Shown: positions 4,098-41,089 of the stretch, one piece after another
Layout: the number at the start of each line of letters is the position of its first letter
How positions within the stretch are numbered: the stretch's first letter is position 1
NCBI GenBank assembly: GCA_963841705.1
Contig: CAWJDY010000043.1
Coordinates: 41,163-105,162, forward strand
Reading direction: 5' to 3'
DNA length: 64,000 nt
Source: an uncultured Alphaproteobacteria bacterium
GTDB lineage: Bacteria > Pseudomonadota > Alphaproteobacteria > Rhizobiales > Xanthobacteraceae
Notes under the pieces: model-generated
Databases searched by the model: none
What the model was told of the DNA's origin: nothing
Seen by the model: only the letters and a program-made list of their open reading frames with translations
Made by a program: the position numbers and the translations under genes

Positions 4098-5267
4098 TCA
4101 CAGCTTCAGCGCCGGGAGGTCGATCCAGCGCCGCTCCTGCCAGCTGCGCAGCCCCGCTTCCGCAAGCTGCACCCCCTTGGCGCCTTCGAGCAGCGTCCAT
4201 TTGAACGGCGCGTCCTCGAACAGATGCCGGATGAACATCTCCCACTCCGCCTTGAAGCCGTTGTCGTAGGAGGTCGTGTCCGGCACCTCGCTCCAGGTCT
4301 CGAGGAATTTGATCGGCTGCGGCACGTCCGGATTCCAGATCGGCCGCGGCGTGTTCACCCGCGCCTGGCTCCAGCAGTTCTGCAATCCGGCCACCGCCGA
4401 GCCATGGGTGCCGTCGACGTGGAAGGTGACGAGGTCATCGCGGCGCACGCGCGTGCACCAGGAGCTGTTGATATGCGCGACGATCCCGCCGGCAAGCTGG
4501 AAGGTCGCGTAGGCGGAGTCGTCGACGTCCACGCCGTAGGGCTTGCCGTCCTCGTCCCAGCGCTTGGGGATGTGGGTCGCACCCAGGCAGGAGACGCTTT
4601 CCACCTCGCCGAACAGATTGTCCAGCACGTAGCGCCAGTGACAGAGCATATCGAGAATGATGCCGCCGCCCTCCTGCTTGCGGTAGTTCCAGGACGGCCG
4701 TTGCGCCGGCGTCCAGTCGCCCTCGAACACCCAGTAGCCGAACTCGCCGCGCACCGAGATGATGCGCCCGAAGAAGGCGGCGTCGATCAGGGTGCGCAGC
4801 TTGAGCAACCCAGGCAGGAACAGCTTGTCCTGCACCACGCCGTGCCGCAGGCGCGCCTTCTTCGCCGCGCGCGCGACCGCCAGCGCATCGTCGAGGTTCT
4901 CCGCGATCGGCTTCTCGCAGTAGATGTCCTTGCCGGCGGCGATCGCCGCCTGCAGCAGGCCCGCGCGCAGCTTGGTGGTGGCGGCATCGAAGAACAGCGT
5001 GTCGTCGGGGTTCTTGAGCGCCGCATCGAGATTGGTGGTCCAGCGCGCGATGCCGTGCGCGTTGGCGAGCTGAGCCAGCTTGGCTTCATTGCGGCCGACC
5101 AGGATGGGGTCGGGCATGACCGTGTCGCCGTTGCGCAGCGCCACGCCGCCTTGCGCGCGGATCGCCAGGATCGAGCGGATGAGATGCTGGTTCATCCCCA
5201 TGCGGCCGGTCACGCCGTTCATGATGATGCCGAGACGGTGCTGCATGGCTCCTCTCTCATTTGTCAT
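4098..5267 (-). CDS. Gfo/Idh/MocA family oxidoreductase
   Basis: 389-aa ORF with an N-terminal Rossmann segment (LGIIMNGVTGRMG) and the EKP motif (CEKPIAENL). Start probably at MQHRLG (5246). Confidence 0.85.
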   Translation of the reverse strand: MTNERGAMQHRLGIIMNGVTGRMGMNQHLIRSILAIRAQGGVALRNGDTVMPDPILVGRNEAKLAQLANAHGIARWTTNLDAALKNPDDTLFFDAATTKLRAGLLQAAIAAGKDIYCEKPIAENLDDALAVARAAKKARLRHGVVQDKLFLPGLLKLRTLIDAAFFGRIISVRGEFGYWVFEGDWTPAQRPSWNYRKQEGGGIILDMLCHWRYVLDNLFGEVESVSCLGATHIPKRWDEDGKPYGVDVDDSAYATFQLAGGIVAHINSSWCTRVRRDDLVTFHVDGTHGSAVAGLQNCWSQARVNTPRPIWNPDVPQPIKFLETWSEVPDTTSYDNGFKAEWEMFIRHLFEDAPFKWTLLEGAKGVQLAEAGLRSWQERRWIDLPALKL

Positions 5268-5302: not shown

Positions 5303-7181
5303 GTAGGTGAGGATGTTACCACCCTCACCCCCCACGGACCCGGACGTGCAGGATTACCGCTTCCGGTTCTTCATGAGAGAGCCTGGCTAGCGGTGGCGTA
5401 CTGATGGACGATGCGAGGTCGCGGGAGGGGATGGCGGGCGAGGAAGGCAGAGAACCGCTCCCATGAGAGAGGCTCCGAGCGCGTCCGCCGTTCCAGCCAC
5501 TTCCTCCACGTCCTTGTGATCTGATGAGCGTAGGTGGCGAGTTGCCGGCTGTTCCCCGTGATACCGTAGTAGGCATAGTGACCTACCAGCTTCTCAGACA
5601 GCCGCTTGCGCTGATCGAGGATCGGCAGGTGGCGGTTGAACCGACACCACTCCTTCGCCGCGAGCAGCGCGCGAGCGAGCCGGCTCTTGGCCGTCCGTTG
5701 CCGTACCACGTTCTGCCCCTTGAGTGACTTCGCCCAGGTGTGGGTGAAGCCCAGAAAGTCGAACGGCGGTTCGGCGCAGTCCGGATGCGTGCCACCTTTG
5801 CGCTCGGGGCGGAAGTCGACGAACCGGGTCTTGTCGGGATGCAGCGTGAGCCCATACCGTGCAAGCCGTTTCCCCAGCACTTCCAGAACCCGTTTGGCGT
5901 CGCGGTGGTTCTTGAACGTCATCACGAAGTCATCGGCAAAGCGCACCAACGTACACTCTCCCAGCATGCGGGGTCGCACCTCTGCCTCGAACCATTCGTC
6001 CAGCACGTGGTGCAGGAAGATGTTCGAGAGCATCGGTGAGATGACGCCGCCTTGCGGGGTACCTTCAGTCGCAAGGCGCAGGGTTCCATCTTCCAGGACC
6101 CCTGCTTTCAGCCACTTGTCGATCATCCGTCGGATCACGCCATCCGTTACTCGCTGGTCGAGGAACGCCCGAAGTTGCGCGTGCGGAATCGAGTCGAAGT
6201 ACTTGCGTATATCGACATCCAGCACCCAGTGCTGTCCATGCCACGAGATGGCGCCATGCAGTTTGCGCAGCGCCTCATGGGCTGAGCGTCGCGGTCGGAA
6301 GCCATACGAGCAAGGCATGAAGTCCTGCTCGTAGATGGTCGCCAGAACCATGACAATCGCCCGCTGCGCCACCTTGTCTTCAAAGGTCGGAATGCCGAGC
6401 GGCCGCTTTGAGCCGTCTGCCTTCGGGATGTAGGTTCTGCGCACCGGCGGTGCTTTGTAGCTTCCGGACTTGATGCGATTGAGCAGGTCCAAGAGATTGG
6501 CCTGCAGCTTCGCTTCATATTCCTTCGCGGTAACACCGTCGATGCCAGTCGCTCCATCCTTGCGGGTCAGCCGGTAGGCTTTCAGCATCCATTCCAGATC
6601 GATAACGTGGTGCAGCGAGAACAGCACCTTCTTCGGCTTCGCTCTCGCCAGTTCGGCTATCCATTGTCGTTTCGTGTACAGGTTCGCGAGGTTCATGTCC
6701 CCTCCCGTGTTTCCCGGCAATGGTTCTCTCTCACGACGCCTCCCTTTCCTCCATCGGGTCCCAGTGAGCCCAGTTCCCCGCTCTCGTCGGTACTATGAAG
6801 GCGCTACGACTTCCCACCCGCGTATCAACGGTCACTTATTGGTTCGCTCCCGCCGCCCACGCGATCCTCCTGGTTCGTGTCCCGCCGTGGCGCTCCTGAA
6901 GGAGCGGAGGTCTCCTCCAGGCCGGGGCTTTTGTTGCCGGCTGCCCTGCTCCGGTTCTCGCACGTGGACGCGAATGGGATCTCTCAGGTCTTCAGGCGAT
7001 CCATCCCGTGCCTCTGCTCCGTTCCAGGACCCCGGTCGAACCAACGTGCCCTCGCCAGTGACGGCCACGTCGATGCTGCCCCCGCATTCCGGACTACGAA
7101 GGCTTCAGCGAAAATGATTTCGGGGCTAACCCGCAGCTTCAGCACCTGCTACCGTACGCTTCACGCGTGACGTTGCCGCAC
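5303..7181 (-). mobile_element. group II intron (about 1.88 kb, ORF in domain IV); boundaries approximate
   Basis: GUGCG on the minus strand at 7181-7177 (GUGUG at 7183). A domain-V-like hairpin lies at about 5337-5370 (GAACCGGAAGCGG..CACGUCCGGGUC). A domain-VI-like hairpin GGUGAGG..CCUCACCUAC ends near 5303. The element encloses an RT/maturase ORF. Confidence 0.75.
5371..6720 (-). CDS. group II intron reverse transcriptase/maturase (no C-terminal HNH endonuclease domain)
   Basis: 449-aa ORF with RT blocks (RPLGIPTFEDKVAQRA, GTPQGGVISPMLSNIFL, FADDFV) and an X/maturase region (LVGHYAYYGITGN). The ORF ends without an HNH motif. Confidence 0.92.
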   Translation of the reverse strand: MPGNTGGDMNLANLYTKRQWIAELARAKPKKVLFSLHHVIDLEWMLKAYRLTRKDGATGIDGVTAKEYEAKLQANLLDLLNRIKSGSYKAPPVRRTYIPKADGSKRPLGIPTFEDKVAQRAIVMVLATIYEQDFMPCSYGFRPRRSAHEALRKLHGAISWHGQHWVLDVDIRKYFDSIPHAQLRAFLDQRVTDGVIRRMIDKWLKAGVLEDGTLRLATEGTPQGGVISPMLSNIFLHHVLDEWFEAEVRPRMLGECTLVRFADDFVMTFKNHRDAKRVLEVLGKRLARYGLTLHPDKTRFVDFRPERKGGTHPDCAEPPFDFLGFTHTWAKSLKGQNVVRQRTAKSRLARALLAAKEWCRFNRHLPILDQRKRLSEKLVGHYAYYGITGNSRQLATYAHQITRTWRKWLERRTRSEPLSWERFSAFLARHPLPRPRIVHQYATASQALS

Positions 7182-7309
7182 ACGTGCAAGGCTCGCTTCC
7201 GGCTGGCGGGCTGCGCCTTTGCCGGGAGGGAGTCGAACCCTCTGGACCGCTACGAAAGGTTTCAGCTCGTTTTCACGATCGTCCTCCTCTCCTGCTCTCC
7301 TGACGCTAC

Positions 7310-7465
7310 CGGAATCCATAACCCCAAACAGTGATGTGGGCCACCGCAGCGTAACCACTTTCATCGCAACTGCACGGCCTGTGGTTATGGATTCCGGGCT
7401 CCGCTCGCACTCGGACGGCGCGAAGCGCCGATCCGAGCACTCGCGGCCCCGGAATGACGGCTAGA
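7310..7465. repeat. partial copy of the R3 repeat (internal part of the MITE at 21758-22030)
   Basis: CCGGAATCCATAACCCCAA..GGCCTGTGGTTATGGATTCCGGGCTCCGCTCGCACTCGGACGGCGCGAAGCGCCGATCCGAGCACTCGCGGCCCCGGAATGACGG is nearly identical to 21846-21993. It abuts the intron-containing insertion. Confidence 0.8.
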
Positions 7466-7506
7466 GTAGTGCGTAAATTCACAACAGTCACATGTATAAT
7501 CCAACA

Positions 7507-8394
7507 TCACCCGAACTCGGGGCCGATGACGGCGAAGGTGCGGTCGGGGTCGTCGAAGCGGGTCGCGTGCCCGTGCGCCATGCGCGTGAACGGTCGCGCC
7601 GGCGCAAAGCCGCGCGCCTGGAGGAATGCGCGCAGGTGCGATTTCGCATCGGCGAGATCGATGAAGAGCGGCGCCTCGATGCGCGCGGCCGCACGCGCAA
7701 CCAGCGCGCAGGCGATGGCGTCGCTCGCCGCAACCACCGGTCCGATGTGCGCGATCATGCGGCCGTCACGGCCGAGGCAAAAGCCGACGATGCGATCTCC
7801 CGATTGGGCGATCAGCTCGGCTTCGCGCAGGCGGCCGCGCAGCCCGGCGAGCACGGCATGGCGCGGCGCGCCGAACGCAGCGGCATCGAATGCGGTGAGC
7901 GCCGGCCAGTCGTCATCGCCAATGGCGCGGATGCCGATGCCGGCGGGAAGAGGGAGCGCATCGCCGGTGCTTTGCTGCGCTCCCCGCTGCTCGCGCCGCA
8001 GGCGATGAAATCCCCACCAGTCGGCATAGCCGATGGCGCGATAGACGGGATGACCGTCCGGAGTTGCGTCGAGCACCGGCACGCGGCCCGCAGCCGCGAG
8101 CTCCTCGGTCGCGCGCCGCATCAGCCGCGTCGCCAATCCGCGGCGGCGCCAGGCGCCCGCGACCAGCACCATGCTGATCCAGGCGATGCGCTCGCCGTAA
8201 GGCAGCGTCGCCGTGGTTGCGACGATGCGGCCGGCGTTGGTGTGCGCCGCGTAGATGTGCCCGAGCTCCAGGAACAGGCGCCAATCCTTCGCGTTCTGAT
8301 TCCAGCGCGCCTCGGTGACCAGCGCTTCGAGGTCATCGAGCTCCGACGGCGAAAGCGACGATTTGCGCGCGATGCCGAGCTCAGAAATTTCCAT
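7507..8394 (-). CDS. GNAT family N-acetyltransferase
   Basis: 295-aa ORF. Acetyl-CoA binding motif region [18 protein letters not shown], with a second GNAT-like C-terminal half. Confidence 0.8.
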
Positions 8395-29984: not shown

Positions 29985-30218
29985 ATGGCTCGGAAACCGG
30001 GAACGCGTGCCAGCGCTGAATTCGTGCTGTTCGATGTCTTTTATGAGGACGGCTCGCGGCGGTCCAATCGCAAGGTGCCAAGTGCGGTGCTGGCCGGCAT
30101 AGAAGGCGAGGCCGCCGCTGCCGTCTTCCTTACCGAGCAGGACCAGGCGATTGCAACGAAGTCCGGGCTCCCCGCAGTTGCCATAAAGGCCGTACACCGC
30201 TCCGGCAGAAAGGGTTAG
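29985..30218 (+). CDS. hypothetical protein
   Basis: 77-aa ORF, compositionally protein-like, tandem with the next ORF. Confidence 0.45.
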   Translation: MARKPGTRASAEFVLFDVFYEDGSRRSNRKVPSAVLAGIEGEAAAAVFLTEQDQAIATKSGLPAVAIKAVHRSGRKG

Positions 30219-30221
30219 CTC

Positions 30222-30467
30222 ATGCGCATCTACATATTCAAGTCAGAGTCGAGGAGGGAGCTGCGTGCATTCGCAGGCGATATAAGCGGGGACAAACTCC
30301 CGAAAAACCACGGTCCCTGGACGGCCACTGGCGTGATCGGAGCAGAGAAAGCACCTCCCCATAATCTCTCGCGTGAAGTGATCGAAGAAGCAATCCAAAC
30401 TGAGGGATTTCAGCTCTGGCGCCTGCAGAAAAAAGCAAAGAAGGAAAAGCTCCAGTCTGCGCCATAG
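30222..30467 (+). CDS. hypothetical protein
   Basis: 81-aa ORF MRIYIFKSESRRELRAFAGD..., 3 nt after the previous ORF, followed by hairpin GAGCTCC-GCGCTG-GGAGCCC. Confidence 0.45.
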   Translation: MRIYIFKSESRRELRAFAGDISGDKLPKNHGPWTATGVIGAEKAPPHNLSREVIEEAIQTEGFQLWRLQKKAKKEKLQSAP

Positions 30468-30514
30468 AGCTCCGCGCTGGGAGCCCGGCGCGTCTATGAG
30501 CTACACCCTCGAAT

Positions 30515-30588
30515 TGGTACTGACGTCAGGAGTTGAACCTGAATCACCCGGTTCACAGCCGAGTACTCTGCCGTTGAGCTACATCAGC
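30515..30588 (-). tRNA. tRNA-His(GUG), alphaproteobacterial type
   Basis: 74 nt. Acceptor GCUGAUG/CGUCAGU with G1-U72, A73, encoded CCA. Anticodon arm CUCGG-CUGUGAA-CCGGG. T arm UCAGG-UUCAACU-CCUGA. Base -1 is U (no G-1). Confidence 0.85.
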
Positions 30589-30589
30589 A

Positions 30590-30664
30590 TGGTGCCTATG
30601 GGTTGAATCGAACAACCGACACGCCGCATATGAAACGGCTGCTCCACCGCTGAGCTACACAGGC
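30590..30664 (-). tRNA. tRNA-Met or tRNA-Ile2 (CAU), elongator type
   Basis: 75 nt. Acceptor GCCUGUG/CAUAGGC, A73, CCA. D arm GCUC-AGCGGUG-GAGC. Anticodon arm GCCGU-UUCAUAU-GCGGC. T arm GGUUG-UUCGAUU-CAACC. No initiator features. Confidence 0.85.
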
Positions 30665-30675
30665 GTTTTCCGCAC

Positions 30676-30749
30676 TGGCTCCCCCTCATGGATTCGAACC
30701 ACGATCCTCGCATTCAAAGTGCGATATCCTGCCGTTAGACGAAGGGGGA
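30676..30749 (-). tRNA. tRNA-Gln(UUG)
   Basis: 74 nt. Acceptor UCCCCCU/AGGGGGA (U1-A72), G73, CCA. Anticodon arm UCGCA-CUUUGAA-UGCGA. T arm CGUGG-UUCGAAU-CCAUG. Confidence 0.85.
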
Positions 30750-30751
30750 AA

Positions 30752-30828
30752 TGGTCCGACCTGCGGGATTTGAACCCGCGTCACCTCGCTTGAAAGGCGA
30801 GCATCCTGGGCCACTAGACGAAGGTCGG
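30752..30828 (-). tRNA. tRNA-Glu(UUC)
   Basis: 77 nt. Acceptor CCGACCU/AGGUCGG, A73, CCA. Glu-type D region UCGUCUAGUGGCCCAGGA. Anticodon arm CUCGC-CUUUCAA-GCGAG. T arm GCGGG-UUCAAAU-CCCGC. Confidence 0.8.
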
Positions 30829-30830
30829 TT

Positions 30831-30905
30831 TGGTGCGGGCAGTGAGAATCGAACTCACGCGTCTTGGTTGGAAGCCAAGCACGCACCCCAGTACGCCATG
30901 CCCGC
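30831..30905 (-). tRNA. tRNA-Gly(UCC)
   Basis: 75 nt. Acceptor GCGGGCA/UGCCCGC, A73, CCA. Anticodon arm CUUGG-CUUCCAA-CCAAG. T arm GUGAG-UUCGAUU-CUCAC. Confidence 0.9.
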
Positions 30906-30912
30906 ATTGATT

Positions 30913-31000
30913 TGGCGGAGAGTTGAGAGCACGATTCTCACCGGCTAACCCGGCCGATCGCTTAGCAGGCGACGCTGGGCACCCGCCCAGTTAACTCTCC
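30913..31000 (-). tRNA. tRNA with Ser anticodon GCU, tRNA-Sec/allo-tRNA-like 8/4 fold
   Basis: 88 nt. 8-bp acceptor GGAGAGUU/AACUCUCC, G73, CCA, AA linker. D arm is a 6-bp stem CUGGGC/GCCCAG with 4-nt loop GGGU. Anticodon arm GUCGC-CUGCUAA-GCGAU. Variable hairpin CCGG-GUUAG-CCGG. 4-bp T stem GAGA/UCUC, loop AUCGUGC. Confidence 0.7.
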
Positions 31001-31004
31001 AGGT

Positions 31005-31079
31005 TGGAGACCGCGACACGATTCGAACGTGCATCCTCCGATGTAGGAAATCGGCGCTCATCCTTTGAGCTACGCGGCC
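31005..31079 (-). tRNA. tRNA-Arg(CCU)
   Basis: 75 nt. Acceptor GGCCGCG/CGCGGUC, U73, CCA. D arm GCUC-AAAGGAU-GAGC. Anticodon arm CCGAU-UUCCUAC-AUCGG. T arm GCACG-UUCGAAU-CGUGU. Confidence 0.85.
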
Positions 31080-31129
31080 ATGGAAGAAAAGCTGATCAGT
31101 CCCGGTCCGGGCTCTTCCAACCGATCTGT

Positions 31130-31579
31130 TTAACGGCGCTGCCTGCGCAAAGGGTACGAACTGGACTGGCCGTCTGGACTCGCAATGACCACCACATAAC
31201 CGTCGGGGTCGCGGAGCCACATTTCTCGATGTTGAGGCCCGGGGTTGACGTGAGGTTCTTCGATGATCTCGGTCCGCAATGCGCGCGCACGCTCCACGAC
31301 GGAGTCAAAGTCGTCAACCTGGAACCAAAGTAAGACCCCGTGTCCGGGAGGCGCGGCATTCGCGTCGACCAGGTTTGCGTGATTCTCCTCGTCCCAAGCG
31401 TGGAGTTGAAGAATCAAATGACCGGACGAGGACATCCGGTCGTACACGTCACGATGACTGTGTTCGGGGAGCGAGTCTGCCCCAAGCAGTTCCGCGTACC
31501 AGCGACTGCTCGCTCTTACATTGCGCACGGCTATGAGGGGTTGAGCCTGGACGCTTGATTTCTGCACAGCGGAGCTCAT
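31130..31579 (-). CDS. VOC (glyoxalase/bleomycin-resistance/dioxygenase) family protein
   Basis: 149-aa ORF with a GGAGGAC RBS 7 nt upstream. Embedded in the tRNA array on the same strand. Confidence 0.8.
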   Translation of the reverse strand: MSSAVQKSSVQAQPLIAVRNVRASSRWYAELLGADSLPEHSHRDVYDRMSSSGHLILQLHAWDEENHANLVDANAAPPGHGVLLWFQVDDFDSVVERARALRTEIIEEPHVNPGPQHREMWLRDPDGYVVVIASPDGQSSSYPLRRQRR

Positions 31580-31658
31580 ATGTCCTCCTGCTTTTGATAG
31601 TTCGCACTGAATCTCTGCGCATCAGATAATATGGCGCCGCCTTGACGCCGAGAATGAG

Positions 31659-31734
31659 TGGAGCTCCAGGCTGGATTCGAACCAGCATGTGCCGATTTAG
31701 AAGATCGGTGCCTCTCCGCTCGAGCCACTGGAGC
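31659..31734 (-). tRNA. tRNA-Arg(UCU)
   Basis: 76 nt. Acceptor GCUCCAG/CUGGAGC, U73, CCA. Anticodon arm CCGAU-CUUCUAA-AUCGG. T arm GCUGG-UUCGAAU-CCAGC. Confidence 0.85.
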
Positions 31735-31735
31735 T

Positions 31736-31809
31736 TGGAGACCAGAGCCGGAATTGAACCGGCGTGGGCGCTTTTGCAGAGCGCTCCCTAACCACTCGGG
31801 CATCTGGTC
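31736..31809 (-). tRNA. tRNA-Cys(GCA)
   Basis: 74 nt. Acceptor GACCAGA/UCUGGUC, U73, CCA. Anticodon arm GCGCU-CUGCAAA-AGCGC. T arm GCCGG-UUCAAUU-CCGGC. Confidence 0.9.
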
Positions 31810-31812
31810 GAT

Positions 31813-31887
31813 TGGCAGCCCGTCGCGGACTTGAACCGCGGCATCCGCTTTCAGAGAGCGGCGCTCTACCAGCTGAGCTAACGGGCA
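31813..31887 (-). tRNA. tRNA-Gln(CUG)
   Basis: 75 nt. Acceptor UGCCCGU/ACGGGCU with a U1-U72 mismatch, G73, CCA. D arm GCUC-AGCUGGUA-GAGC. Anticodon arm CCGCU-CUCUGAA-AGCGG. T arm CGCGG-UUCAAGU-CCGCG. Confidence 0.75.
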
Positions 31888-31889
31888 AT

Positions 31890-31968
31890 TGGTCAGGGCG
31901 GGTGGATTCGAACCACCGGTCTCCTGCTTCCAAGGCAGGCAGGGACGGCCAGGCTCCCCTACACCCTG
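31890..31968 (-). tRNA. tRNA-Pro(UGG)
   Basis: 79 nt. Acceptor CAGGGUG/CGCCCUG (C1-G72), A73, CCA. Anticodon arm CCUGC-CUUGGAA-GCAGG. T arm GGUGG-UUCGAAU-CCACC. Confidence 0.85.
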
Positions 31969-31974
31969 ATGAAT

Positions 31975-32051
31975 TGGCGCGCACGGGAGGACTCGAACCT
32001 CCACCGCCCGGATTCGTAGTCCGGCACATTGTCCAGTTGTGCTACGTGCGC
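31975..32051 (-). tRNA. tRNA-Arg(ACG), array copy
   Basis: 77 nt. Acceptor GCGCACG/CGUGCGC, G73, CCA. Anticodon arm CCGGA-CUACGAA-UCCGG. T arm GGAGG-UUCGAGU-CCUCC. Differs from the tRNA-Arg(ACG) at 41013-41089 at 18 of 77 positions by hand alignment. Confidence 0.9.
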
Positions 32052-32055
32052 AGAT

Positions 32056-32129
32056 TGGAGCGGCCGACGGGATTTGAACCCGCGTTTCCCGGCTTGAGGG
32101 GCTAGTGTGCTGCCTTAGACGACGACCGC
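32056..32129 (-). tRNA. tRNA-like, Glu(CUC)-type, imperfect anticodon arm (possible pseudogene)
   Basis: 74 nt. Acceptor GCGGUCG/CGGCCGC, U73, CCA. T arm GCGGG-UUCAAAU-CCCGU. D region UCGUCUAAGGCAG. Anticodon arm CUAGC-CCCUCAA-GCCGG has an A-C mismatch and C at position 33. Confidence 0.45.
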
Positions 32130-32133
32130 GAAT

Positions 32134-32211
32134 TGGCTCCGGCCGGTGGATTCGAACCACCCTCATTCTCGGTTAACAGCCGAGCGCGCTCACCTAGAGT
32201 GCTAGACCGGA
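32134..32211 (-). tRNA. tRNA-Asn(GUU)
   Basis: 78 nt. Acceptor UCCGGUC/GGCCGGA (U1-A72), G73, CCA. Anticodon arm CUCGG-CUGUUAA-CCGAG. T arm GGUGG-UUCGAAU-CCACC. Confidence 0.8.
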
Positions 32212-32216
32212 AGAAT

Positions 32217-32321
32217 TGGTGGAGACAGTCGGTAACGCGTCGCAACCCGGGCCCGCCCGGGTTGCGCATCATCGACCCGCGACGATCTTGCAAGGATCAT
32301 CTGCACCCTTGTGCTGTCCCC
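32217..32321 (-). ncRNA. tRNA-like unit of unknown specificity containing a REP-type hairpin (possible pseudogene)
   Basis: 105 nt, 1-5 nt from its neighbours. 8-bp acceptor-like helix GGGGACAG/CUGUCUCC plus ACCA. Hairpins CAAGG-11nt-CCUUG and AUCGUC-GCGGGUC-GAUGAU. An 11-bp hairpin CGCAACCCGGG/CCCGGGUUGCG resembles the R2 repeat. No recognisable T arm. Confidence 0.3.
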
Positions 32322-32322
32322 G

Positions 32323-32467
32323 TGGTGCCGAGGGTTGGTTTCGAGCCAACCTCCCCGCCGAAGTCGGATGTATCCGACTTCGGCCGACTTAACACTTGGC
32401 CGAACTCGAGTATACCCGAGTTCGGCTGTCTTCAGCGCGGTGCTTTCACCAGATGAGCTTCCTCGGC
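32323..32467 (-). tRNA. tRNA-Phe(GAA)-like gene expanded/disrupted by two long hairpins (possible pseudogene)
   Basis: 145 nt. Acceptor GCCGAGG/CCUCGGC, A73, CCA. D region AAGCUCAUCUGGUGAAAGC. CCGCG-CUGAAGA is not followed by a matching 3' stem. About 75 nt with perfect hairpins CCGAACUCG/CGAGUUCGG and GCCGAAGUCGGA/UCCGACUUCGGC. T arm GUUGG-CUCGAAA-CCAAC. Confidence 0.4.
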
Positions 32468-32503
32468 ATTTAACGTTGCAGACGGGTGTAAACACCCTTT
32501 TGT

Positions 32504-32577
32504 TGGTGCGGGCGTCGGTAATCGAAACCGAGTCTCCTGAGTGGCGCTCAGGTGCTAGGCCTTCCAGCTACGTCCGC
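32504..32577 (-). tRNA. tRNA-Gly(GCC)-like, unusual anticodon loop
   Basis: 74 nt. Acceptor GCGGACG/CGCCCGC (one A-C mismatch), A73, CCA. Anticodon arm CCUGA-GCGCCAC-UCAGG (C at 33; a G32-C38 pair could reduce the loop to 5 nt). T arm UCGGU-UUCGAUU-ACCGA. Confidence 0.55.
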
Positions 32578-32601
32578 CATCAGGGCGTTTGCGCACGCTA
32601 T

Positions 32602-32692
32602 TGGTGGGAAGTGGACGGAATCGAACCTCTTGCCCGCAGGGACCGCGTTTACAGCGCGGCGACGGCACCAGCCTGTCCTTATGGCACTTCCC
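32602..32692 (-). tRNA. tRNA-Tyr(GUA), class II, non-standard D arm
   Basis: 91 nt. Acceptor GGGAAGU/ACUUCCC (an 8th G-C pair is possible), A73, CCA. Anticodon arm CCGCG-CUGUAAA-CGCGG. Variable hairpin CCC-UGC-GGG. D position occupied by GAC(A)GGC-UGGU-GCCGUC. T stem GAGG/CC(G)UC, loop UUCGAUU. Confidence 0.7.
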
Positions 32693-32697
32693 GTGTC

Positions 32698-32838
32698 TGG
32701 TTGCGGGTCCCGGGGTTGCACCGCAAGTCGGCTTTTGCCGACTTGCGGCACTTCATTTAGTGCCGGAAGTCGGGCAAGCCCGGCTTCCGGGCGATCGCGG
32801 CTTATGAGACCGCGTGGGTTCCTAACCGACCTACCCGC
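32698..32838 (-). tRNA. tRNA-Met(CAU)-like 5' half followed by three REP-type hairpins (probable pseudogene)
   Basis: 141 nt. The 5' half is good (acceptor strand GCGGGU, D arm GGU-CGGUUAGGA-ACC, anticodon arm CGCGGU-CUCAUAA-GCCGCG). Then come hairpins CCGGAAGCCGGGC/GCCCGACUUCCGG, GGCACU-AAAUGA-AGUGCC and GCAAGUCGGC-AAAA-GCCGACUUGC. No T arm; 3' end ACCCGC-AACCA. Confidence 0.35.
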
Positions 32839-32844
32839 TAAAAA

Positions 32845-32897
32845 TGGTGCGAAGGCTTTTACTCCCTCGCTTGCTGCCGGTACTTCCGCGGTCAGCA
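32845..32897 (-). ncRNA. tRNA fragment / minihelix with ACCA end
   Basis: 53 nt. Hairpin UGCUG(A)CCG..CGGCAGCA, then minihelix GCGAGGG-AGUAAAAG-CCUUCGC followed by ACCA. No cloverleaf. Confidence 0.25.
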
Positions 32898-32901
32898 GAA
32901 A

Positions 32902-32988
32902 TGGCGGATGCCTGACGTGTCGATCGCCACACCATGTGGTGCCATCCCGCTTCGAACGGGTGCCAGAGGCCGCTCTGGTTAAGCATCC
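32902..32988 (-). tRNA. tRNA with Ser anticodon CGA, tRNA-Sec/allo-tRNA-like 8/4 fold
   Basis: 87 nt. 8-bp acceptor GGAUGCUU/AGGCAUCC, G73, CCA, AA linker. D arm is a 6-bp stem CCAGAG/CUCUGG with 4-nt loop CGGC. Anticodon arm CCCG-UUCGAAG-CGGG. Variable hairpin GCACC-ACAU-GGUGU. 4-bp T stem GGCG/CGUC, loop AUCGACA. Confidence 0.7.
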
Positions 32989-32991
32989 ATG

Positions 32992-33096
32992 TGGAGGAAG
33001 GCCGCGGTCTCGATCCGCAGTGGCGAACCACCCGATCGCTTTCCAAGCAATGCCGATCGCCCGACCCCCGGACTTGATCCGGGGGTTTGACCTTCC
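32992..33096 (-). tRNA. tRNA with Ser anticodon GGA, 8/4-like fold with oversized D hairpin
   Basis: 105 nt. 8-bp acceptor GGAAGGUC/GGCCUUCC, U73, CCA, AA linker. 9-bp hairpin ACCCCCGGA-UCAAG-UCCGGGGGU. 11 extra nt. Anticodon arm AUUGC-UUGGAAA-GCGAU. Variable hairpin GUGG-UUCG-CCAC. T stem GCGG/CCGC, loop AUCGAGA. Confidence 0.5.
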
Positions 33097-33100
33097 GTAT

Positions 33101-33188
33101 TGGCGGATGGCGGAGCACTCGAAGCCCATGCCTTGCGGCACCATCGGTGTTCAAAGCCGCGCCGGCGAGCCTTGCCGGTTCACCATCC
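33101..33188 (-). tRNA. tRNA with probable Ser anticodon UGA, 8/4-like fold
   Basis: 88 nt. 8-bp acceptor GGAUGGUG/CGCCAUCC, G73, CCA, AA linker. D arm CCGGC-AAGGCUC-GCCGG. Weak anticodon arm GCGGC-UUUGAAC-ACCGA (3 central bp). Variable hairpin GUGCC-GCAA-GGCAU. 4-bp T stem GGGC/GCUC, loop UUCGAGU. Confidence 0.55.
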
Positions 33189-33192
33189 CTAT

Positions 33193-33267
33193 TGGCCTAC
33201 CGGATAGGAGTCCAACCTATGTCCTCGACGTTCGGAGGGTCGCGCTCATCCACTGAGCTACCGGTAG
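33193..33267 (-). tRNA. tRNA-Arg(CCG)
   Basis: 75 nt. Acceptor CUACCGG/CCGGUAG, G73, CCA. D arm GCUC-AGUGGAU-GAGC. Anticodon arm CGACC-CUCCGAA-CGUCG (C-C at 31-39). T arm AUAGG-UUGGACU-CCUAU (G instead of C56). Confidence 0.65.
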
Positions 33268-33276
33268 TTTGTTTGT

Positions 33277-33366
33277 TGGTCGGCGCCCCGGGTTACGATC
33301 CCGACCGTCTACAGCAGTCCGCTGCCCCGGTTTATAAGACCGAGCCGCACGCCAGTGCTGACGCCG
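33277..33366 (-). tRNA. class-II-shaped tRNA with Ile anticodon UAU
   Basis: 90 nt. Acceptor CGGCGUC/GGCGCCG, A73, CCA. D arm GCAC-UGGC-GUGC (4-nt loop). 6-bp anticodon stem CUCGGU/ACCGGG, loop CUUAUAA. Long variable region with hairpin CAGC-GGACU-GCUG. T arm UCGGG-AUCGUAA-CCCGG. Confidence 0.55.
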
Positions 33367-33406
33367 TGCAGAGAATGCGCGCGATATTCTCCTCATCGTC
33401 TGTCCT

Positions 33407-33483
33407 TGGTCGGAGTGGCTGGATTTGAACTAGCGACCTCTTCGTTCCGAACGAAGAGCGCTTCCAGGCTGCGCTACACTCCG
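33407..33483 (-). tRNA. tRNA-Pro(CGG)
   Basis: 77 nt. Acceptor CGGAGUG/CACUCCG (C1-G72), A73, CCA. D arm GCGC-AGCCUGGAA-GCGC. Anticodon arm CUUCG-UUCGGAA-CGAAG. T arm GCUAG-UUCAAAU-CCAGC (one A-C mismatch). Confidence 0.8.
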
Positions 33484-33487
33484 GAAA

Positions 33488-33562
33488 TGGCGCGCTGTAC
33501 GGGACTCGAACCCGTCTCGCTCGATAGACAGTCGAGCTGCCTCACCCGATGCATAACAGCGC
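33488..33562 (-). tRNA. tRNA-Asp(GUC)
   Basis: 75 nt. Acceptor GCGCUGU/ACAGCGC, G73, CCA. Anticodon arm CUCGA-CUGUCUA-UCGAG. T arm ACGGG-UUCGAGU-CCCGU. Confidence 0.85.
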
Positions 33563-33601
33563 AACGCAATCGTGAAGGCCGACTGCCGCGATCGACGAAA
33601 A

Positions 33602-33677
33602 TGGTGTGCCTGGCTCGTTTCGAACGAGCACTGAACGCGCTCTCAACGCGTTCCCTCTGCCATTGGGGTACAGGCAC
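33602..33677 (-). tRNA. class-I tRNA with Leu anticodon GAG (identity uncertain)
   Basis: 76 nt. Acceptor GUGCCUG/CAGGCAC, A73, CCA. D arm CCCC-AAUGGCAGA-GGG. Anticodon arm ACGCG-UUGAGAG-CGCGU. Only a 5-nt variable loop. T arm GCUCG-UUCGAAA-CGAGC. Confidence 0.75.
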
Positions 33678-33678
33678 A

Positions 33679-33765
33679 TGGAGGACCAGGCAGGAGTCGA
33701 ACCTGCGATGGGCATAGCCAGCGGATTAAGAGTCCGCCCCGTTCGGCCGCTACGGTGACTGGTCC
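33679..33765 (-). tRNA. tRNA-Lys(CUU) with enlarged variable region
   Basis: 87 nt. Acceptor GGACCAG/CUGGUCC, U73, CCA. Anticodon arm GCGGA-CUCUUAA-UCCGC. 14-nt variable region with mini-hairpin GGC-UAU-GCC. T arm GCAGG-UUCGACU-CCUGC. Confidence 0.65.
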
Positions 33766-33767
33766 CA

Positions 33768-33850
33768 TGGAGGACGCGAGTGGTTACGATCCACAGGCCG
33801 ACGGGTTAAAAGTCCGCTCCCTCTCCATTCGGGTTTAAGGCTTCGCGTCC
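33768..33850 (-). tRNA. tRNA-Lys(UUU)-like, oversized D region
   Basis: 83 nt. Acceptor GGACGCG/CGCGUCC, U73, CCA. Anticodon arm GCGGA-CUUUUAA-CCCGU (A-C at 31-39). T stem GUGG/CCAC, loop AUCGUAA. Confidence 0.55.
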
Positions 33851-33854
33851 GGAT

Positions 33855-33931
33855 TGGTGCAAGCGGGAGGTTACTCCCTCCTCCTACCACGCGGTTATCG
33901 GCCGCGGCCCTCGCTTCTCGGACTCGCTTGC
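33855..33931 (-). tRNA. tRNA-like with Ile anticodon GAU, non-canonical T and anticodon loops
   Basis: 77 nt. Acceptor GCAAGCG/CGCUUGC, A73, CCA. Anticodon arm CGCGG-CCGAUAA-CCGCG (C at 33). T stem GGAGG/CCUCC with a 9-nt loop AGGGAGUAA lacking UUC. Confidence 0.4.
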
Positions 33932-33948
33932 ATGTTTGGTCTTTTGAT

Positions 33949-34024
33949 TGGTGCTCCCTGACGGACTCGAACCGCCGAATGTCCGGGTGTAAACCAGATG
34001 CCTTTGCCGCTTGGCGAAGGGAGC
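33949..34024 (-). tRNA. tRNA-Val(UAC)
   Basis: 76 nt. Acceptor GCUCCCU/AGGGAGC, A73, CCA. Anticodon arm UCUGG-UUUACAC-CCGGA. T arm GGCGG-UUCGAGU-CCGUC. Confidence 0.9.
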
Positions 34025-34030
34025 GTTATC

Positions 34031-34110
34031 TGGTGCCCGTGATAGGATTCGAACCTACACTGTCACTTCTTTTGAGGAAGTGGCCGCTACCGGGATTGGG
34101 CTACACGGGC
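34031..34110 (-). tRNA. class-I tRNA with Leu anticodon CAA (identity uncertain)
   Basis: 80 nt. Acceptor GCCCGUG/CACGGGC, A73, CCA. D region UAGCCCAAUCCCGGUAGCGGC. Anticodon arm ACUUC-CUCAAAA-GAAGU. 5-nt variable loop. T arm GUAGG-UUCGAAU-CCUAU. Confidence 0.75.
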
Positions 34111-34112
34111 AT

Positions 34113-34190
34113 TGGTGCGCCAGGCGAGATTCGAACTCGCACTGCTCTCGTTCTGAGCGAGATGCCTCCTGCCAATTGGGCTACCGGCGC
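34113..34190 (-). tRNA. class-I tRNA with Leu anticodon CAG (identity uncertain)
   Basis: 78 nt. Acceptor GCGCCGG/CUGGCGC, A73, CCA. D region UAGCCCAAUUGGCAGGAGGC. Anticodon arm UCUCG-CUCAGAA-CGAGA. 5-nt variable loop. T arm GCGAG-UUCGAAU-CUCGC. Confidence 0.75.
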
Positions 34191-34279
34191 ATGCTGCTCT
34201 CTCGGATGAGCAGAGCATGATCCCGAAAAGTTGCAAGCTTTTGGACACGATCATGCGACCGAACAAGGTCAGAGCGAAT
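34191..34279 (-). other. structured spacer with anticodon-loop-like hairpin (not a cloverleaf)
   Basis: 89 nt between two tRNAs. Long hairpin GCAUGAUC..GAUCAUGC capped by AAAAG-CUUGCAA-CUUUU (UGC in a 7-nt loop with U33/A37). Second hairpin AUGCU(CU)GCUC-AUCCGAGA-GAGCAGCAU. No acceptor stem or CCA. Confidence 0.2.
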
Positions 34280-34353
34280 TGGAGCCCTCACCTGGACTTG
34301 AACCAGGCTCCCCGCCTTACAAGAACGGAGCATCACCGCAATGCTTTGAGGGC
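34280..34353 (-). tRNA. tRNA-Thr(UGU)
   Basis: 74 nt. Acceptor GCCCUCA/UGAGGGC, U73, CCA. D arm GCAU-UGCGGUG-AUGC. Anticodon arm CCGUU-CUUGUAA-GGCGG. T arm CCUGG-UUCAAGU-CCAGG. Confidence 0.9.
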
Positions 34354-34374
34354 GCAATACCTTCAGGATCATGT

Positions 34375-34446
34375 TGCTGGCAGCAGGGATCAAACCTCCC
34401 GACGCCACATATGAGAGTGGCGCTCTATCGCCTTAACCCTGCCAGC
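34375..34446 (-). tRNA. degenerate tRNA-Met(CAU)-like unit, first in array (possible pseudogene)
   Basis: 72 nt. Acceptor GCUGGCA/UGCCAGC, A73, no encoded CCA. Stem GCCAC/GUGGC with 8-nt loop UCUCAUAU. T arm GGAGG-UUUGAUC-CCUGC with a G-G mismatch. Poor D arm. Confidence 0.35.
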
Positions 34447-34505
34447 GCTGACATGTTCTCGCCGAAACCAGAGCCGTTGGTCGGTCCTACGGGTCGAGAG
34501 GCGCT

Positions 34506-34533
34506 CTTATGCGTAGGGAGCGCCGGCCTGCAA
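34506..34533 (-). promoter_or_regulatory. candidate sigma-70-type promoter for the tRNA array
   Basis: Minus strand TTGCAG (34533-34528), 16-nt spacer, CATAAG (34511-34506), about 60 nt upstream of the first array unit. Motif match only. Confidence 0.2.
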
Positions 34534-34541
34534 CGATTCGA

Positions 34542-34733
34542 TCATTCCGAGCCGAAAATCCGCTCGAAATCAGCGTCTGCGCGCGCAACGATCTCGCGCG
34601 CGATATCGGGATTGGCGATGGCGGTCTTGCCGAAGACGAACGAGCGCCGGCACGCGCGCCGCTGCTCCGGCGACGCAGTGGTGTCGCGGGTGCTCTCGAT
34701 CAGCTCGTCTTTGGTCTTGGTGTCGCGGACCAC
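34542..34733 (-). CDS. small hypothetical protein
   Basis: 63-aa ORF MVRDTKTKDELIESTRDTTASPEQRR...IAREIVARADADFERIFGSE. Protein-like composition; no family recognised. Confidence 0.3.
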   Translation of the reverse strand: MVRDTKTKDELIESTRDTTASPEQRRACRRSFVFGKTAIANPDIAREIVARADADFERIFGSE

Positions 34734-35067
34734 TTGGTCCTCCTGCCTGTTGGCGGAGGACTTGGGTCTCCGCCGGTTACGCTAGGGCTAAGCTTTGCCC
34801 TTGTTCGCCTGTTATCTGATGCCTGGGCATAGCCCCGCACGAACGCCGCCGATCGCTCGGCCGATCAAACGGCCGTGCGGCGGCGGTTGAGAGCGCGGTA
34901 TGTGGTCTTAACGACAACATCTCTTCCTCAGGTCCTCAGGGCGACGCAACTCGTCCTTGAACAGCGCGCTCATATAGTGAGCAGCTGCAAAAAGTCAAGT
35001 GCACGCGAGCAACATGCTCTCTCTTTCTCTAACAGGCGGTTATTCTACGCAAAGCGGGCAGAGCAAC

Positions 35068-36070
35068 TCAACGGGCTGCCTTCGCCTTCTCATAAAAGCT
35101 GAGGTCGATGTATTTCATCGGATCCTTCAGCTCCTTTTTAGGCTCGCCATACTGGCTGCGCAACGCGAGCACGGTGCGTACGCCCTTCGACGTCGATCGA
35201 AGCGTCGCGTGCGAAGCCGTCCTTCGGGTCCATCAAGATGCCATAGGACTTGTTGGCAAGGTCCTCGGCCATGTTGGGCAGGTTCTTGCGCAGGATCGCG
35301 ATCGCCTCGGCCTTGTTGGCAGGGTCGTAGAGCCAACCAACGGCTGCTCGATAGCCGCGGATGAAACCCGCGACCTGCAACTCGTTCTCCTTCGCCCATT
35401 GCCGCCGCGAACAGGCAACGACGCCCTGGTAATGCCCGAGCACGTCGACCGCATTGGCGAGCCGGTTGAAACCGCGTGCCTCCGCGGCTGCCTCGAACGG
35501 CGAAACGAGCAGGGTTGCGGCATGCTTCTTGGCGAGGAGCGCCTCGAACCGCTGTAGCACGCCGCCTGCTTTCACATACGTGACATCGTCGGGCTTGAGC
35601 CCGCCTTTCTCGAGCAGCTTCTCGAGGACAAAGGCGTAGCCGGTCGTGCGCGCATCGACCGATACCTCCTTGCCCTTGAGGTCGGCATAGGTCTTCACCT
35701 CCGGCAGGCTGACCAGCCGCAGGAAACCGTTGTCAGAACCCATAACCGCGACGAGGTCCGGCGTCTGGGTGGTCGATGCCTCGCCCTGACCTTCCATGTA
35801 GGCGATGATATTATCAATTGCGGTCATCGCGATGTCGAACTTGCCGTCGATCAAATTCGTGAGCTGGAACACCGAGTTCGGCGTGGGTGTGATCCTGACT
35901 GCCACGTTACCGCGCGCGAACAAGCCTTTCTCCTGCGCGACCCAGATCGGCCAGTTGAAACCGCCAGGGAAGACGATGACCTCTATAGGCTTGGAGGCTT
36001 GTGCCGTCGCCGGGCTGATGAGCCCAAGCGACACAAGGATGGATGTAAGTGCCGTGAGCGGGCGACCCAT
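35068..36070 (-). pseudogene. ABC transporter substrate-binding protein (NMT1/THI5-like, sulfonate/nitrate/taurine type) with apparent 1-nt frameshift near the 3' end
   Basis: The ORF 35138..36070 has a signal peptide and an SBP body. After ...DASIDVEG the family-typical C-terminus VRTVLALRSQYGEPKKELKDPMKYIDLSFYEKAKAAR continues in another frame to the stop at 35068-35070. The switch is at a GGG/CCC run at 35182-35184. Confidence 0.75.
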
Positions 36071-41012: not shown

Positions 41013-41089
41013 TGGCGCGCCCGAAAGGATTCGAACCTCCGACCCCCAAATTCGTAGTCTGGTGCTCTATCCAGCTGAGCTACGGGCGC
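41013..41089 (-). tRNA. tRNA-Arg(ACG), conventional chromosomal copy
   Basis: 77 nt. Acceptor GCGCCCG/CGGGCGC, G73, CCA. D arm GCUC-AGCUGGAUA-GAGC. Anticodon arm CCAGA-CUACGAA-UUUGG. T arm GGAGG-UUCGAAU-CCUUU. Confidence 0.92.

Follow-up and report, generated by a model that had tools for sequence, protein, structure and literature searches.

Canonical bacterial tRNA-Leu, such as that of E. coli, is a class-II tRNA with a long variable arm. Genes for tRNA-Leu of only 74–79 nt are found in several groups of cultured phages, namely Bixzunavirus (Mycobacterium phage Cali/Bxz1), the Streptomyces BE cluster, Mooglevirus/Felixounavirus (Shigella phages Sf19 and Sf14), Erwinia phage phiEa21-4, KVP40-like Vibrio phages and the T5-like phage OSYSP. 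Here we describe three short tRNA genes with the Leu anticodons CAG, CAA and GAG that lie on the minus strand of a 64,000 nt stretch of DNA (the window) from an uncultured alphaproteobacterium of the Xanthobacteraceae (assembly GCA_963841705.1, contig CAWJDY010000043.1, positions 41,163 to 105,162), within a long tRNA gene array (L-array). The three Leu-anticodon tRNAs without a long arm are real, and they are new members of a short-arm type that is abundant and annotated in phage records and has already been used in synthetic biology. From sequence comparison we estimate the probability at roughly 0.8 that they are functional leucine isoacceptors of the short-arm type in an array that has probably spread horizontally.

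The phage genes resemble those of the window in having a variable loop of 5–6 nt, A73, the A15:U48 pair and a D arm of the form UAGCCCAAU(U)GGNAGAGGC; the D arm of Cali tRNA-Leu(CAG), gtagcccaattggcaggaggca, is exactly that of the window CAG unit. They likewise carry Leu anticodons in clusters where the Ser and Tyr tRNAs stay long-armed. In contrast to the phage copies, the window genes are located in a chromosomal-looking alphaproteobacterial array, show only 75–82% identity to phage copies and include a CAA unit with an enlarged D loop. Like the array in the window, described L-arrays and array units have 20 or more tRNA genes on one strand at a density of >2 per kb, supernumerary isodecoders among them, and they resemble the window family in its apparently patchy distribution, differing genomic neighbourhoods and embedded protein genes. 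One study depicts L-arrays as supernumerary genes that spread horizontally and often stay silent until translation is stressed (PMC8421152). The family described here differs from the L-arrays of published papers in coming from Bradyrhizobium, Xanthobacteraceae and soil metagenomes.

With canonical class-II tRNA-Leu the window units have in common A73, A14, A15:U48, a 3-bp D stem, Leu anticodons and the D-loop motif AAUUGG-N-AGA, which is that of E. coli tRNA-Leu; they differ from it in the missing long arm and in a diverged body. Streptomyces tRNA-ProX is an example of a tRNA whose anticodon and body are mismatched and which mistranslates. Nematode nev-tRNAs (PMC3333845) and the yeast CUG-Ser tRNA are mistranslating tRNAs of this kind as well. 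Such tRNAs are superficially similar to the window units in that their structural class is unexpected for the anticodon. In mistranslating tRNAs, however, the body has the identity set of another amino acid, whereas the bodies of the window units have the Leu set. Animal mitochondrial tRNA-Leu is also an armless Leu acceptor, with its identity on A73 and A14 (PMC9976931), but it is organellar, reduced and served by its own leucyl-tRNA synthetase (LeuRS), while the window units possess the full canonical D/T-loop elements and occur in a bacterial or phage setting.

Structure of the three units

tRNA genes were called and their cloverleaves drawn by ARAGORN, and the anticodon coordinates were re-checked on the plus strand. 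The CAG unit (34113–34190, minus strand) is 78 nt in length including CCA, with its anticodon at 34155–34153. The CAA unit (34031–34110, minus strand) is 80 nt including CCA, with its anticodon at 34074–34072, and the GAG unit (33602–33677, minus strand) is 76 nt including CCA, with its anticodon at 33644–33642. The corresponding letters of the plus strand are ctg (34153–34155), ttg (34072–34074) and ctc (33642–33644). All three genes were called by ARAGORN, and the CAG and CAA units were also recognized by the Rfam tRNA model with 55.0 and 47.4 bits, respectively.

Common to all three units are a 7-bp acceptor stem, U8 A9, a 3-bp D stem, A14 A15 U16, G18G19, a 5-bp T stem, A73 and an encoded CCA. 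The T loop is UUCGAAU in the CAG and CAA units and UUCGAAA in the GAG unit. The CAG unit has the D arm GCCC-AAUUGGCAGGA-GGC and the 5-nt variable loop GCAGU; the GAG unit has the D arm CCCC-AAUGGCAGA-GGG and the 5-nt variable loop UCAGU. In the CAA unit the D loop is enlarged, AAUCCCGGUAG, and the variable region, GACAGU, is 6 nt in length, or 5 nt if C26:G44 is taken as a sixth anticodon-stem pair as in the ARAGORN drawing. The long variable arm of canonical class-II tRNA-Leu, a stem-loop of at least 10 nt, is thus not present, the variable region being 5–6 nt in all three units. Upon alignment all three match the D arm U8 A9 (G/C)CCC AAU..GG.AG(A)GG(C/G) with a 3-bp stem, the GAG unit carrying the C10 variant (taccccaat) that is also found in GAG orthologues.

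An initial annotation of the region had described these units as clean cloverleaves with A73 and CCA that share a CCC(C)AAU..GG..GG(G/C) D region and have a 5-nt variable loop. The ARAGORN folds bear out the cloverleaves and the alignment bears out the D region. The loop length is correct for the CAG and GAG units, but the CAA unit has 6 nt unless C26:G44 is paired. At a permissive ARAGORN threshold we likewise found no class-II Leu unit and no UAA or UAG unit in the array, as the annotation had stated.

Related arrays and selection on the units

Related loci were found by searching with the 5′ half of the CAG unit. Contigs of one genome per species yielded three loci (Bradyrhizobium sp. Ai1a-2, a Xanthobacteraceae metagenome-assembled genome and an alphaproteobacterial metagenome-assembled genome) and the Joint Genome Institute (JGI) metagenomes yielded 25 contigs, giving 28 related arrays overall. 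Most of these loci have the same gene order as the window, which runs Thr, Thr, Thr, Leu(CAG), an optional Leu(UAA), Leu(CAA), Val, Lys(CUU), Leu(GAG), Asp, Pro(CGG), a 90-nt Ile(UAU), Arg(CCG) and further genes. The CAG unit is identical in sequence in nine related loci. The Leu units of the related arrays are short, and some arrays have short UAA and UAG versions as well. The exception is the array of Bradyrhizobium sp. Ai1a-2 (L128 in our numbering of loci), in which the CAG and CAA units are short and the UAA and GAG units long, an 84-nt class-II Leu(GAG) occupying the slot of the short GAG unit. None of the genes that flank the array in the window is found beside the related arrays, and the flanks of the related arrays also differ, many of these loci being short.

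The short-arm Leu genes are evolving under the constraint of a tRNA fold. In the CAA orthologues of L127, L128 and L153 the acceptor stem is shared, while the anticodon and T stems differ yet pair. GAG orthologues with compensatory changes are present in L127, L129, L131–L135, L139, L141–L142 and L152–L153. We aligned 37 distinct short-arm Leu sequences from the related arrays and counted pairs on a specified cloverleaf. Pairing was found in 98.2% of cells, and 18 of the 20 pairs have changed on both sides. The covariation score was 0.764, compared with 0.184 in shuffles, and was reached by none of 500 shuffles. When the 3′ partners were slid as a control, pairing was only 31–46%.

Short-arm tRNA-Leu in phages and viral contigs

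Contigs of IMG/VR were scanned for the shared D arm followed at a short spacing by an N-A-R anticodon and, again at a short spacing, by the T loop. The same tRNA design, with the D arm UAGCCCAAU..GG.AGAGGC, A15:U48, A73 and a 5-nt variable loop, was present in at least 120 viral contig stretches. Among the matches listed, all 142 tRNAs with the UAGCCCAAU D arm (tagcccaat) are 73–80 nt in length and 140 of them have Leu anticodons (UAG 42, UAA 42, CAA 40, CAG 6, GAG 6 and AAG 4), while none has a Phe anticodon even though the pattern admitted AAA and GAA. In 208 short Leu-anticodon tRNAs of viral contigs, A73 and A15 are each present in 207 and U48 in 206; 187 of these tRNAs have a 5-nt variable loop and 18 a 6-nt one. 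Counting unique tRNAs of viral loci, A15:U48 and A73 occur together in 220 of 223 Leu-anticodon tRNAs, compared with at most about one third of the tRNAs of any other isotype.

A BLASTN search of GenBank phages with the CAG unit matched 180 records, and the annotated features under the matches are tRNA-Leu. The matched phages include Mycobacterium cluster C, Streptomyces, Felix-O1-like and Moogle-like phages, Erwinia phage phiEa21-4 and KVP40-like Vibrio phages. The rarity implied by the initial annotation was therefore a misjudgement: this is a common type of phages and mobile arrays, already designated tRNA-Leu in GenBank. We consider the short arm of phage and array tRNA-Leu to be under-described rather than unknown. 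An explicit description was not found in the searchable literature, outside of which lie the older papers on the sequencing of T5 tRNAs. The words ‘variable’ and ‘arm’ never occur in the paper on Sf14 tRNAs (PMC12482277), a review of non-canonical tRNAs never mentions phages, and the searched passages of tRNA array papers do not raise the short arm of Leu genes.

Individual phage genomes show how selective the shortening is. Cali encodes tRNA-Leu of 76, 75 and 74 nt and a Ser tRNA of 85 nt. Sf19 encodes tRNA-Leu of 77 (TAG), 78 (CAA) and 79 nt (TAA), Ser tRNAs of 88 and 93 nt and a Tyr tRNA of 88 nt. In both phages only Leu is short, while Ser and, in Sf19, Tyr stay long. ARAGORN analysis of the whole OSYSP genome (MF402939.1) revealed exactly two Leu-anticodon tRNAs. 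Each measures 77 nt and has A15, U48, A73 and a variable loop of 5 nt, while the Ser (89–90 nt) and Tyr (88 nt) tRNAs are long. Every tRNA-Leu is thus short-armed in phages such as Cali, Sf19 and OSYSP. We also drew a neutral sample of viral tRNA clusters by a tRNA-Asn pattern and counted unique tRNAs. Short forms account for 40 of 89 Leu tRNAs in this sample, but only 4 of 64 Ser and 2 of 33 Tyr tRNAs, and class-II Leu is kept in 29 of 51 viral loci. The rule that bacterial-type tRNA-Leu is class II consequently fails for roughly half of the viral tRNA-Leu genes sampled. The loss of the arm is specific to Leu and not shared by Ser or Tyr, and it offers clean confirmation from nature that the arm is dispensable for LeuRS.

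A second short-arm subtype was also observed, with a class-II-like D arm, UG-N-GGAAUUGG-UA-UAC, and the variable loop UUUUG or UUCUG. It is found in viral loci such as L004, L025, L033 and L046 and in OSYSP (L124, 3693–3769 and 9291–9367). The existence of at least two short-arm subtypes points to more than one loss of the long arm.

Leucine identity and isotype assignment

In E. coli, A73 is crucial for leucine identity, the A15–U48 Levitt pair, G18G19 and A20a are essential, and the tertiary pairs linking D loop and T loop matter (PMC9976931). Leucylation in E. coli shows no correlation with the sequence or the folding of the long arm, and armless variants stay active (PMC9976931). All three window units carry the E. 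coli LeuRS set (A73, A14, A15:U48, G18G19 and A20a) together with a GG-N-A-G D-loop motif.

As a home-made stand-in for isotype models, we built one profile hidden Markov model per isotype from viral tRNAs with the anticodons masked. The short-arm Leu profile, which was built independently from viral short-arm Leu tRNAs only, is ahead by 18–24 bits for all three units. It scores 56.0 bits for the CAG unit (next best Lys, 31.6), 42.9 bits for the CAA unit (Met, 23.5) and 26.0 bits for the GAG unit (Asn, 8.1). Because all three units have one body type and are assigned to the viral short-arm Leu profile with masked anticodons, their Leu anticodons reflect more than chance. In the neutral viral sample, 21 of the 23 tRNAs that fall to the short-arm Leu profile with a margin of 10 bits or more have Leu anticodons, and 37 of the 40 short Leu tRNAs are assigned to a Leu-type profile. 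When the short-arm Leu profile was removed from the panel, the best matches were the weak non-Leu profiles named above at the same scores, so that no confident alternative isotype was obtained for any of the units. An arm-trimmed class-II Leu profile falls outside the top five for all three units, and the untrimmed class-II Leu profile is in the top five for the CAA unit only, at 18.6 bits. Since the arm-trimmed profile fails to capture the units, they are not simply genes of host tRNA-Leu from which the arm was recently deleted.

Two phage systems connect the short body to leucine. The TAG, CAA and TAA tRNAs of the Moogle-like phage Sf14 have Leu as their top isotype in tRNAscan-SE, with scores of 67.4, 49.1 and 60.2, and are labelled consistent (PMC12482277); the anticodon loops of these tRNAs match those of the 77–79 nt Leu genes in the related phage Sf19. 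According to passages of another report, an anticodon-swapped tRNA-Leu(CGA) derived from OSYSP decodes TCG as leucine in recoded E. coli (PMC13596443). Since both OSYSP Leu tRNAs are short, this description implies, no matter which of the pair was taken, that a short-arm phage tRNA-Leu receives leucine in vivo irrespective of the anticodon.

The initial annotation had offered two readings of the units, as short-arm Leu acceptors of LeuRS or as substrates of another synthetase that would recode CUN and UUG codons. The first gains support from the identity set, from the masked body type tied to Leu, from the Sf14 isotype ranks and from the insertion of leucine by the OSYSP tRNA. If instead a synthetase other than LeuRS charged the units, CUG, UUG and CUC/CUU would be read partly as another amino acid. 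Such recoding would fit the absence of the class-II hallmark of cellular bacterial tRNA-Leu and the weak non-Leu matches obtained without the short-arm Leu profile. The disagreement of shape and anticodon elsewhere in the array family (long-arm Lys, and long-arm Asn and Met in L128) also makes identity games conceivable. However, passages of PMC11028032 state that the only bacterial synthetases that ignore the anticodon are LeuRS and the alanyl and seryl enzymes (AlaRS and SerRS), and any other synthetase would be confronted with anticodon bases of the Leu type. The G3:U70 pair that marks AlaRS substrates is absent, position 3:70 being G-C, C-G and G-C in the three units, and so are the SerRS marks, a long arm with G73. 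No other profile fits. The units have the full Leu identity set, and its conservation across the family is about 99%. The leucine insertion in E. coli by the short-arm type, as described in part of the source cited above, and the top rank of Leu in the isotype models for Sf14 also argue against recoding, which we regard as very improbable.

Proposed charging and use of the units

We propose that the ordinary LeuRS of the host would charge the CAG, CAA and GAG units with leucine. An enzyme of the E. coli type would read A73 and the corner formed by the D and T loops (A14, A15:U48, G18G19 and A20a) but neither the anticodon nor the long arm, and because it needs neither of the latter the short units should be acceptable to it. 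We infer that the units are expressed and used by the ribosome, where they would decode CUG, UUG and CUC/CUU as leucine beside the host's own long-arm tRNA-Leu. In eight flanking genes the Leu codons are CUC (40%), CUG (35%), CUU (13%), UUG (9%), CUA (2.6%) and UUA (1.1%), so that CUG, CUC, CUU and UUG make up about 96%. The coverage of about 96% of Leu codons by three anticodons accounts for an array with no UAA or UAG unit. If the units are phage-like tRNAs in a transferable array that decode leucine in the ordinary way, the recoding alarm for this window is removed.

Several points weigh against this conclusion. The profile panel is crude, with an accuracy of 61% on non-Leu isotypes. Position 37 is A in the CAG and GAG units, while the CUN decoders of E. 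coli have G37. The OSYSP Leu pair belongs to the other short-arm subtype, with the D arm UGAUGGAAUUGGCAUAC and not UAGCCCAAU. Aquifex LeuRS depends on how the variable arm is oriented, and the arm independence of E. coli-type LeuRS may thus not hold here. The GAG unit, the weakest by the Rfam tRNA model, was not reported by that model at E ≤ 1; in its orthologues the cloverleaf is nonetheless preserved by compensatory changes. Finally, L-arrays elsewhere are poorly transcribed or only induced by stress, according to passages of PMC8421152.

The last two points, together with the aberrant tRNA-like units with odd T loops in the window array, would also suit genes that take no part in translation, either decaying pseudogenes or transcribed decoys or sponges that act outside aminoacylation or ribosome use; L-arrays are likewise called cryptic in part of the same source (PMC8421152). 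Pseudogenes, however, would lose the 98% pairing and the compensatory changes in 18 of 20 pairs. A73, A15:U48, G18G19, canonical anticodon loops with U33 and CCA are all kept in nearly all copies, and the phages Cali, Sf19 and OSYSP have no other kind of tRNA-Leu on which to rely. Passages of the same study also report 23 L-array tRNAs to be functional in Anabaena (PMC8421152). A non-translating role is therefore unlikely, and we favor functional leucine isoacceptors.

Loss of the long arm

The same Leu acceptors could serve another purpose, in which the short arm evades defence or toxin enzymes that pick out long-arm tRNAs and the array constitutes a toxin-proof spare set instead of a supplement to the codon supply. 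In the neutral viral sample the loss of the arm is specific to Leu (40/89, versus 4/64 for Ser and 2/33 for Tyr), and among class-II isotypes Leu is the one for which the E. coli synthetase has been shown to work without the arm, while SerRS needs it; Leu would be able to take this route because E. coli-type LeuRS does not need the arm. The enzymes AbiEii and MenT3 have been reported to prefer long-arm tRNAs, and phage tRNAs have been reported to evolve away from host tRNA nucleases (PMC13596443). In passages of PMC12803027, tRNA array units are regarded as putative anti-defence systems. Genome compaction or drift, allowed by the tolerance of LeuRS, nevertheless fits the pattern equally well. 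In addition, many viral contigs retain class-II Leu (29 of the 51 loci) and the Bradyrhizobium array mixes both classes. An evasive purpose is accordingly possible, but we consider it doubtful. More specifically, the sequence patterns could be read as an adaptive escape from MenT3/AbiEii-like nucleotidyltransferases, and possibly from Schlafen-like nucleases, with the arrays serving as back-up translation kits; this version is speculative and a little less probable again. The Leu-specific loss of the arm nonetheless provides a lead for work on tRNA-targeting defence and counter-defence.

The tRNA array and its surroundings

ARAGORN found 24 tRNA genes in the window. Of these, 23 are located on the minus strand within 30515–34353, each with an encoded CCA, and form the L-array together with several weaker tRNA-like units. 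With 23 same-strand genes in 3.84 kb it is a tRNA array unit under the definition of PMC4758250, which sets a minimum of 20 tRNA genes and of 2 per kb. Permissive ARAGORN called six long-arm units in the array: three for Ser (UGA, GGA and GCU), one resembling Tyr(GUA), and two odd ones with the anticodons of Lys(CUU) and Ile(UAU). The GC content is 0.58–0.61 across the array, compared with 0.62–0.70 elsewhere in the window. The neighbouring genes are chromosomal in character and encode the primary sigma factor RpoD, a DEAD-box helicase, ribosomal protein S21, a cold-shock protein, a histidine kinase and oxidoreductases. A host-type tRNA-Arg(ACG) at 41013–41089 is identical to the tRNA-Arg(ACG) of the array in only 61 of 78 aligned columns, and the array copies are therefore divergent extra genes and not recent duplicates of host genes.

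Directly upstream of the first array tRNA is an open reading frame (ORF) of 63 aa (34542–34733, minus strand). By tblastn it is conserved along with the array, with 66–90% amino-acid identity in 15 related array loci, while a Pfam search with it gave no match; a role in regulating the array or in its mobility is possible. A sigma-70-like promoter match (35042–35071, minus strand; 9/12 in a consensus scan) lies upstream of this ORF and the array. The scan gave 3 sites in the region versus 1.3 expected, and the match is only a weak lead. Pfam searches with the ORFs inside and near the array were uninformative apart from the glyoxalase-family gene described below, and they revealed no integrase or phage genes. 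When att-like direct repeats were sought that would link the tRNA-Arg(ACG) at 41013–41089 to an island boundary, only generic similarities of tRNA 3′ ends were obtained, and the array region (30000–35000) had no megablast match in plasmid and phage collections. Embedded inside the array is a glyoxalase-family gene of 149 aa (31130–31579, minus strand), of which no homologue was found in the related array loci.

Other unusual units in the arrays

Next to the GAG unit, at 33679–33765 (minus strand), is a long-arm tRNA of 87 nt that has U73 and whose anticodon, CUU, is that of Lys. With the anticodon masked it scores 31.2 bits for Tyr, 30.0 for Cys and 19.1 for Lys. The long-arm Lys(CUU) is kept at 86–88 nt in L129, L132, L134 and L142, while the Lys slot is occupied by an ordinary 76-nt Lys(CUU) in L127, L133, L135, L139, L141 and L153. 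Bradyrhizobium sp. Ai1a-2 represents a separate long lineage, with a Lys(CUU) of 89 nt and a Lys(UUU) of 91 nt. The long-arm Lys(CUU) is a class swap in the reverse direction relative to the short Leu units, and the presence of long-arm Lys-anticodon tRNAs in the same arrays hints that structural class is actively reshuffled there.

A 90-nt unit at 33277–33366 (minus strand), called as Ile(UAU), has a long extra region and the non-canonical T loop GAUCGUAAC. It gives a weak Rfam match to tRNA-Sec (25.8 bits) and is nearly unchanged in L127, L129, L131, L133 and L153. Two CCA-ended tRNA-like units at 33766–33948 (minus strand) were missed by both ARAGORN and Rfam. In one of them the anticodon loop is that of GAU (Ile) and the T arm is aberrant, and the other has a UUU loop and the GAUCGUAAC T loop; normal Val(GAC) and Ile(GAU) genes are found at this position in L127. 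About 1 kb of the array (32212–33192, minus strand) contains weak tRNA-like units only: an 88-nt Ser(UGA), a Ser(GGA), a Tyr(GUA)-like unit, a Gly(GCC) and a CAU unit with a large insertion. Rfam scores the Tyr(GUA)-like unit as tRNA-Sec with 29.5 bits and the Gly(GCC) with 42.3 bits. A 193-aa ORF called over part of this segment is probably spurious.

The array of Bradyrhizobium sp. Ai1a-2 (L128; listed spans 4666–4749, 5685–5770 and 6829–8001) contains two odd long-arm units. One, of 86 nt, combines a long arm and G73 with a Leu-like D arm (GGAAUUGGUAGAC) and the Asn anticodon GUU, and the other is an 84-nt long-arm unit with a CAU anticodon; both are possible cases of tRNAs in which shape and anticodon are mismatched. 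A TROVE/Ro60 gene is located directly after this array.

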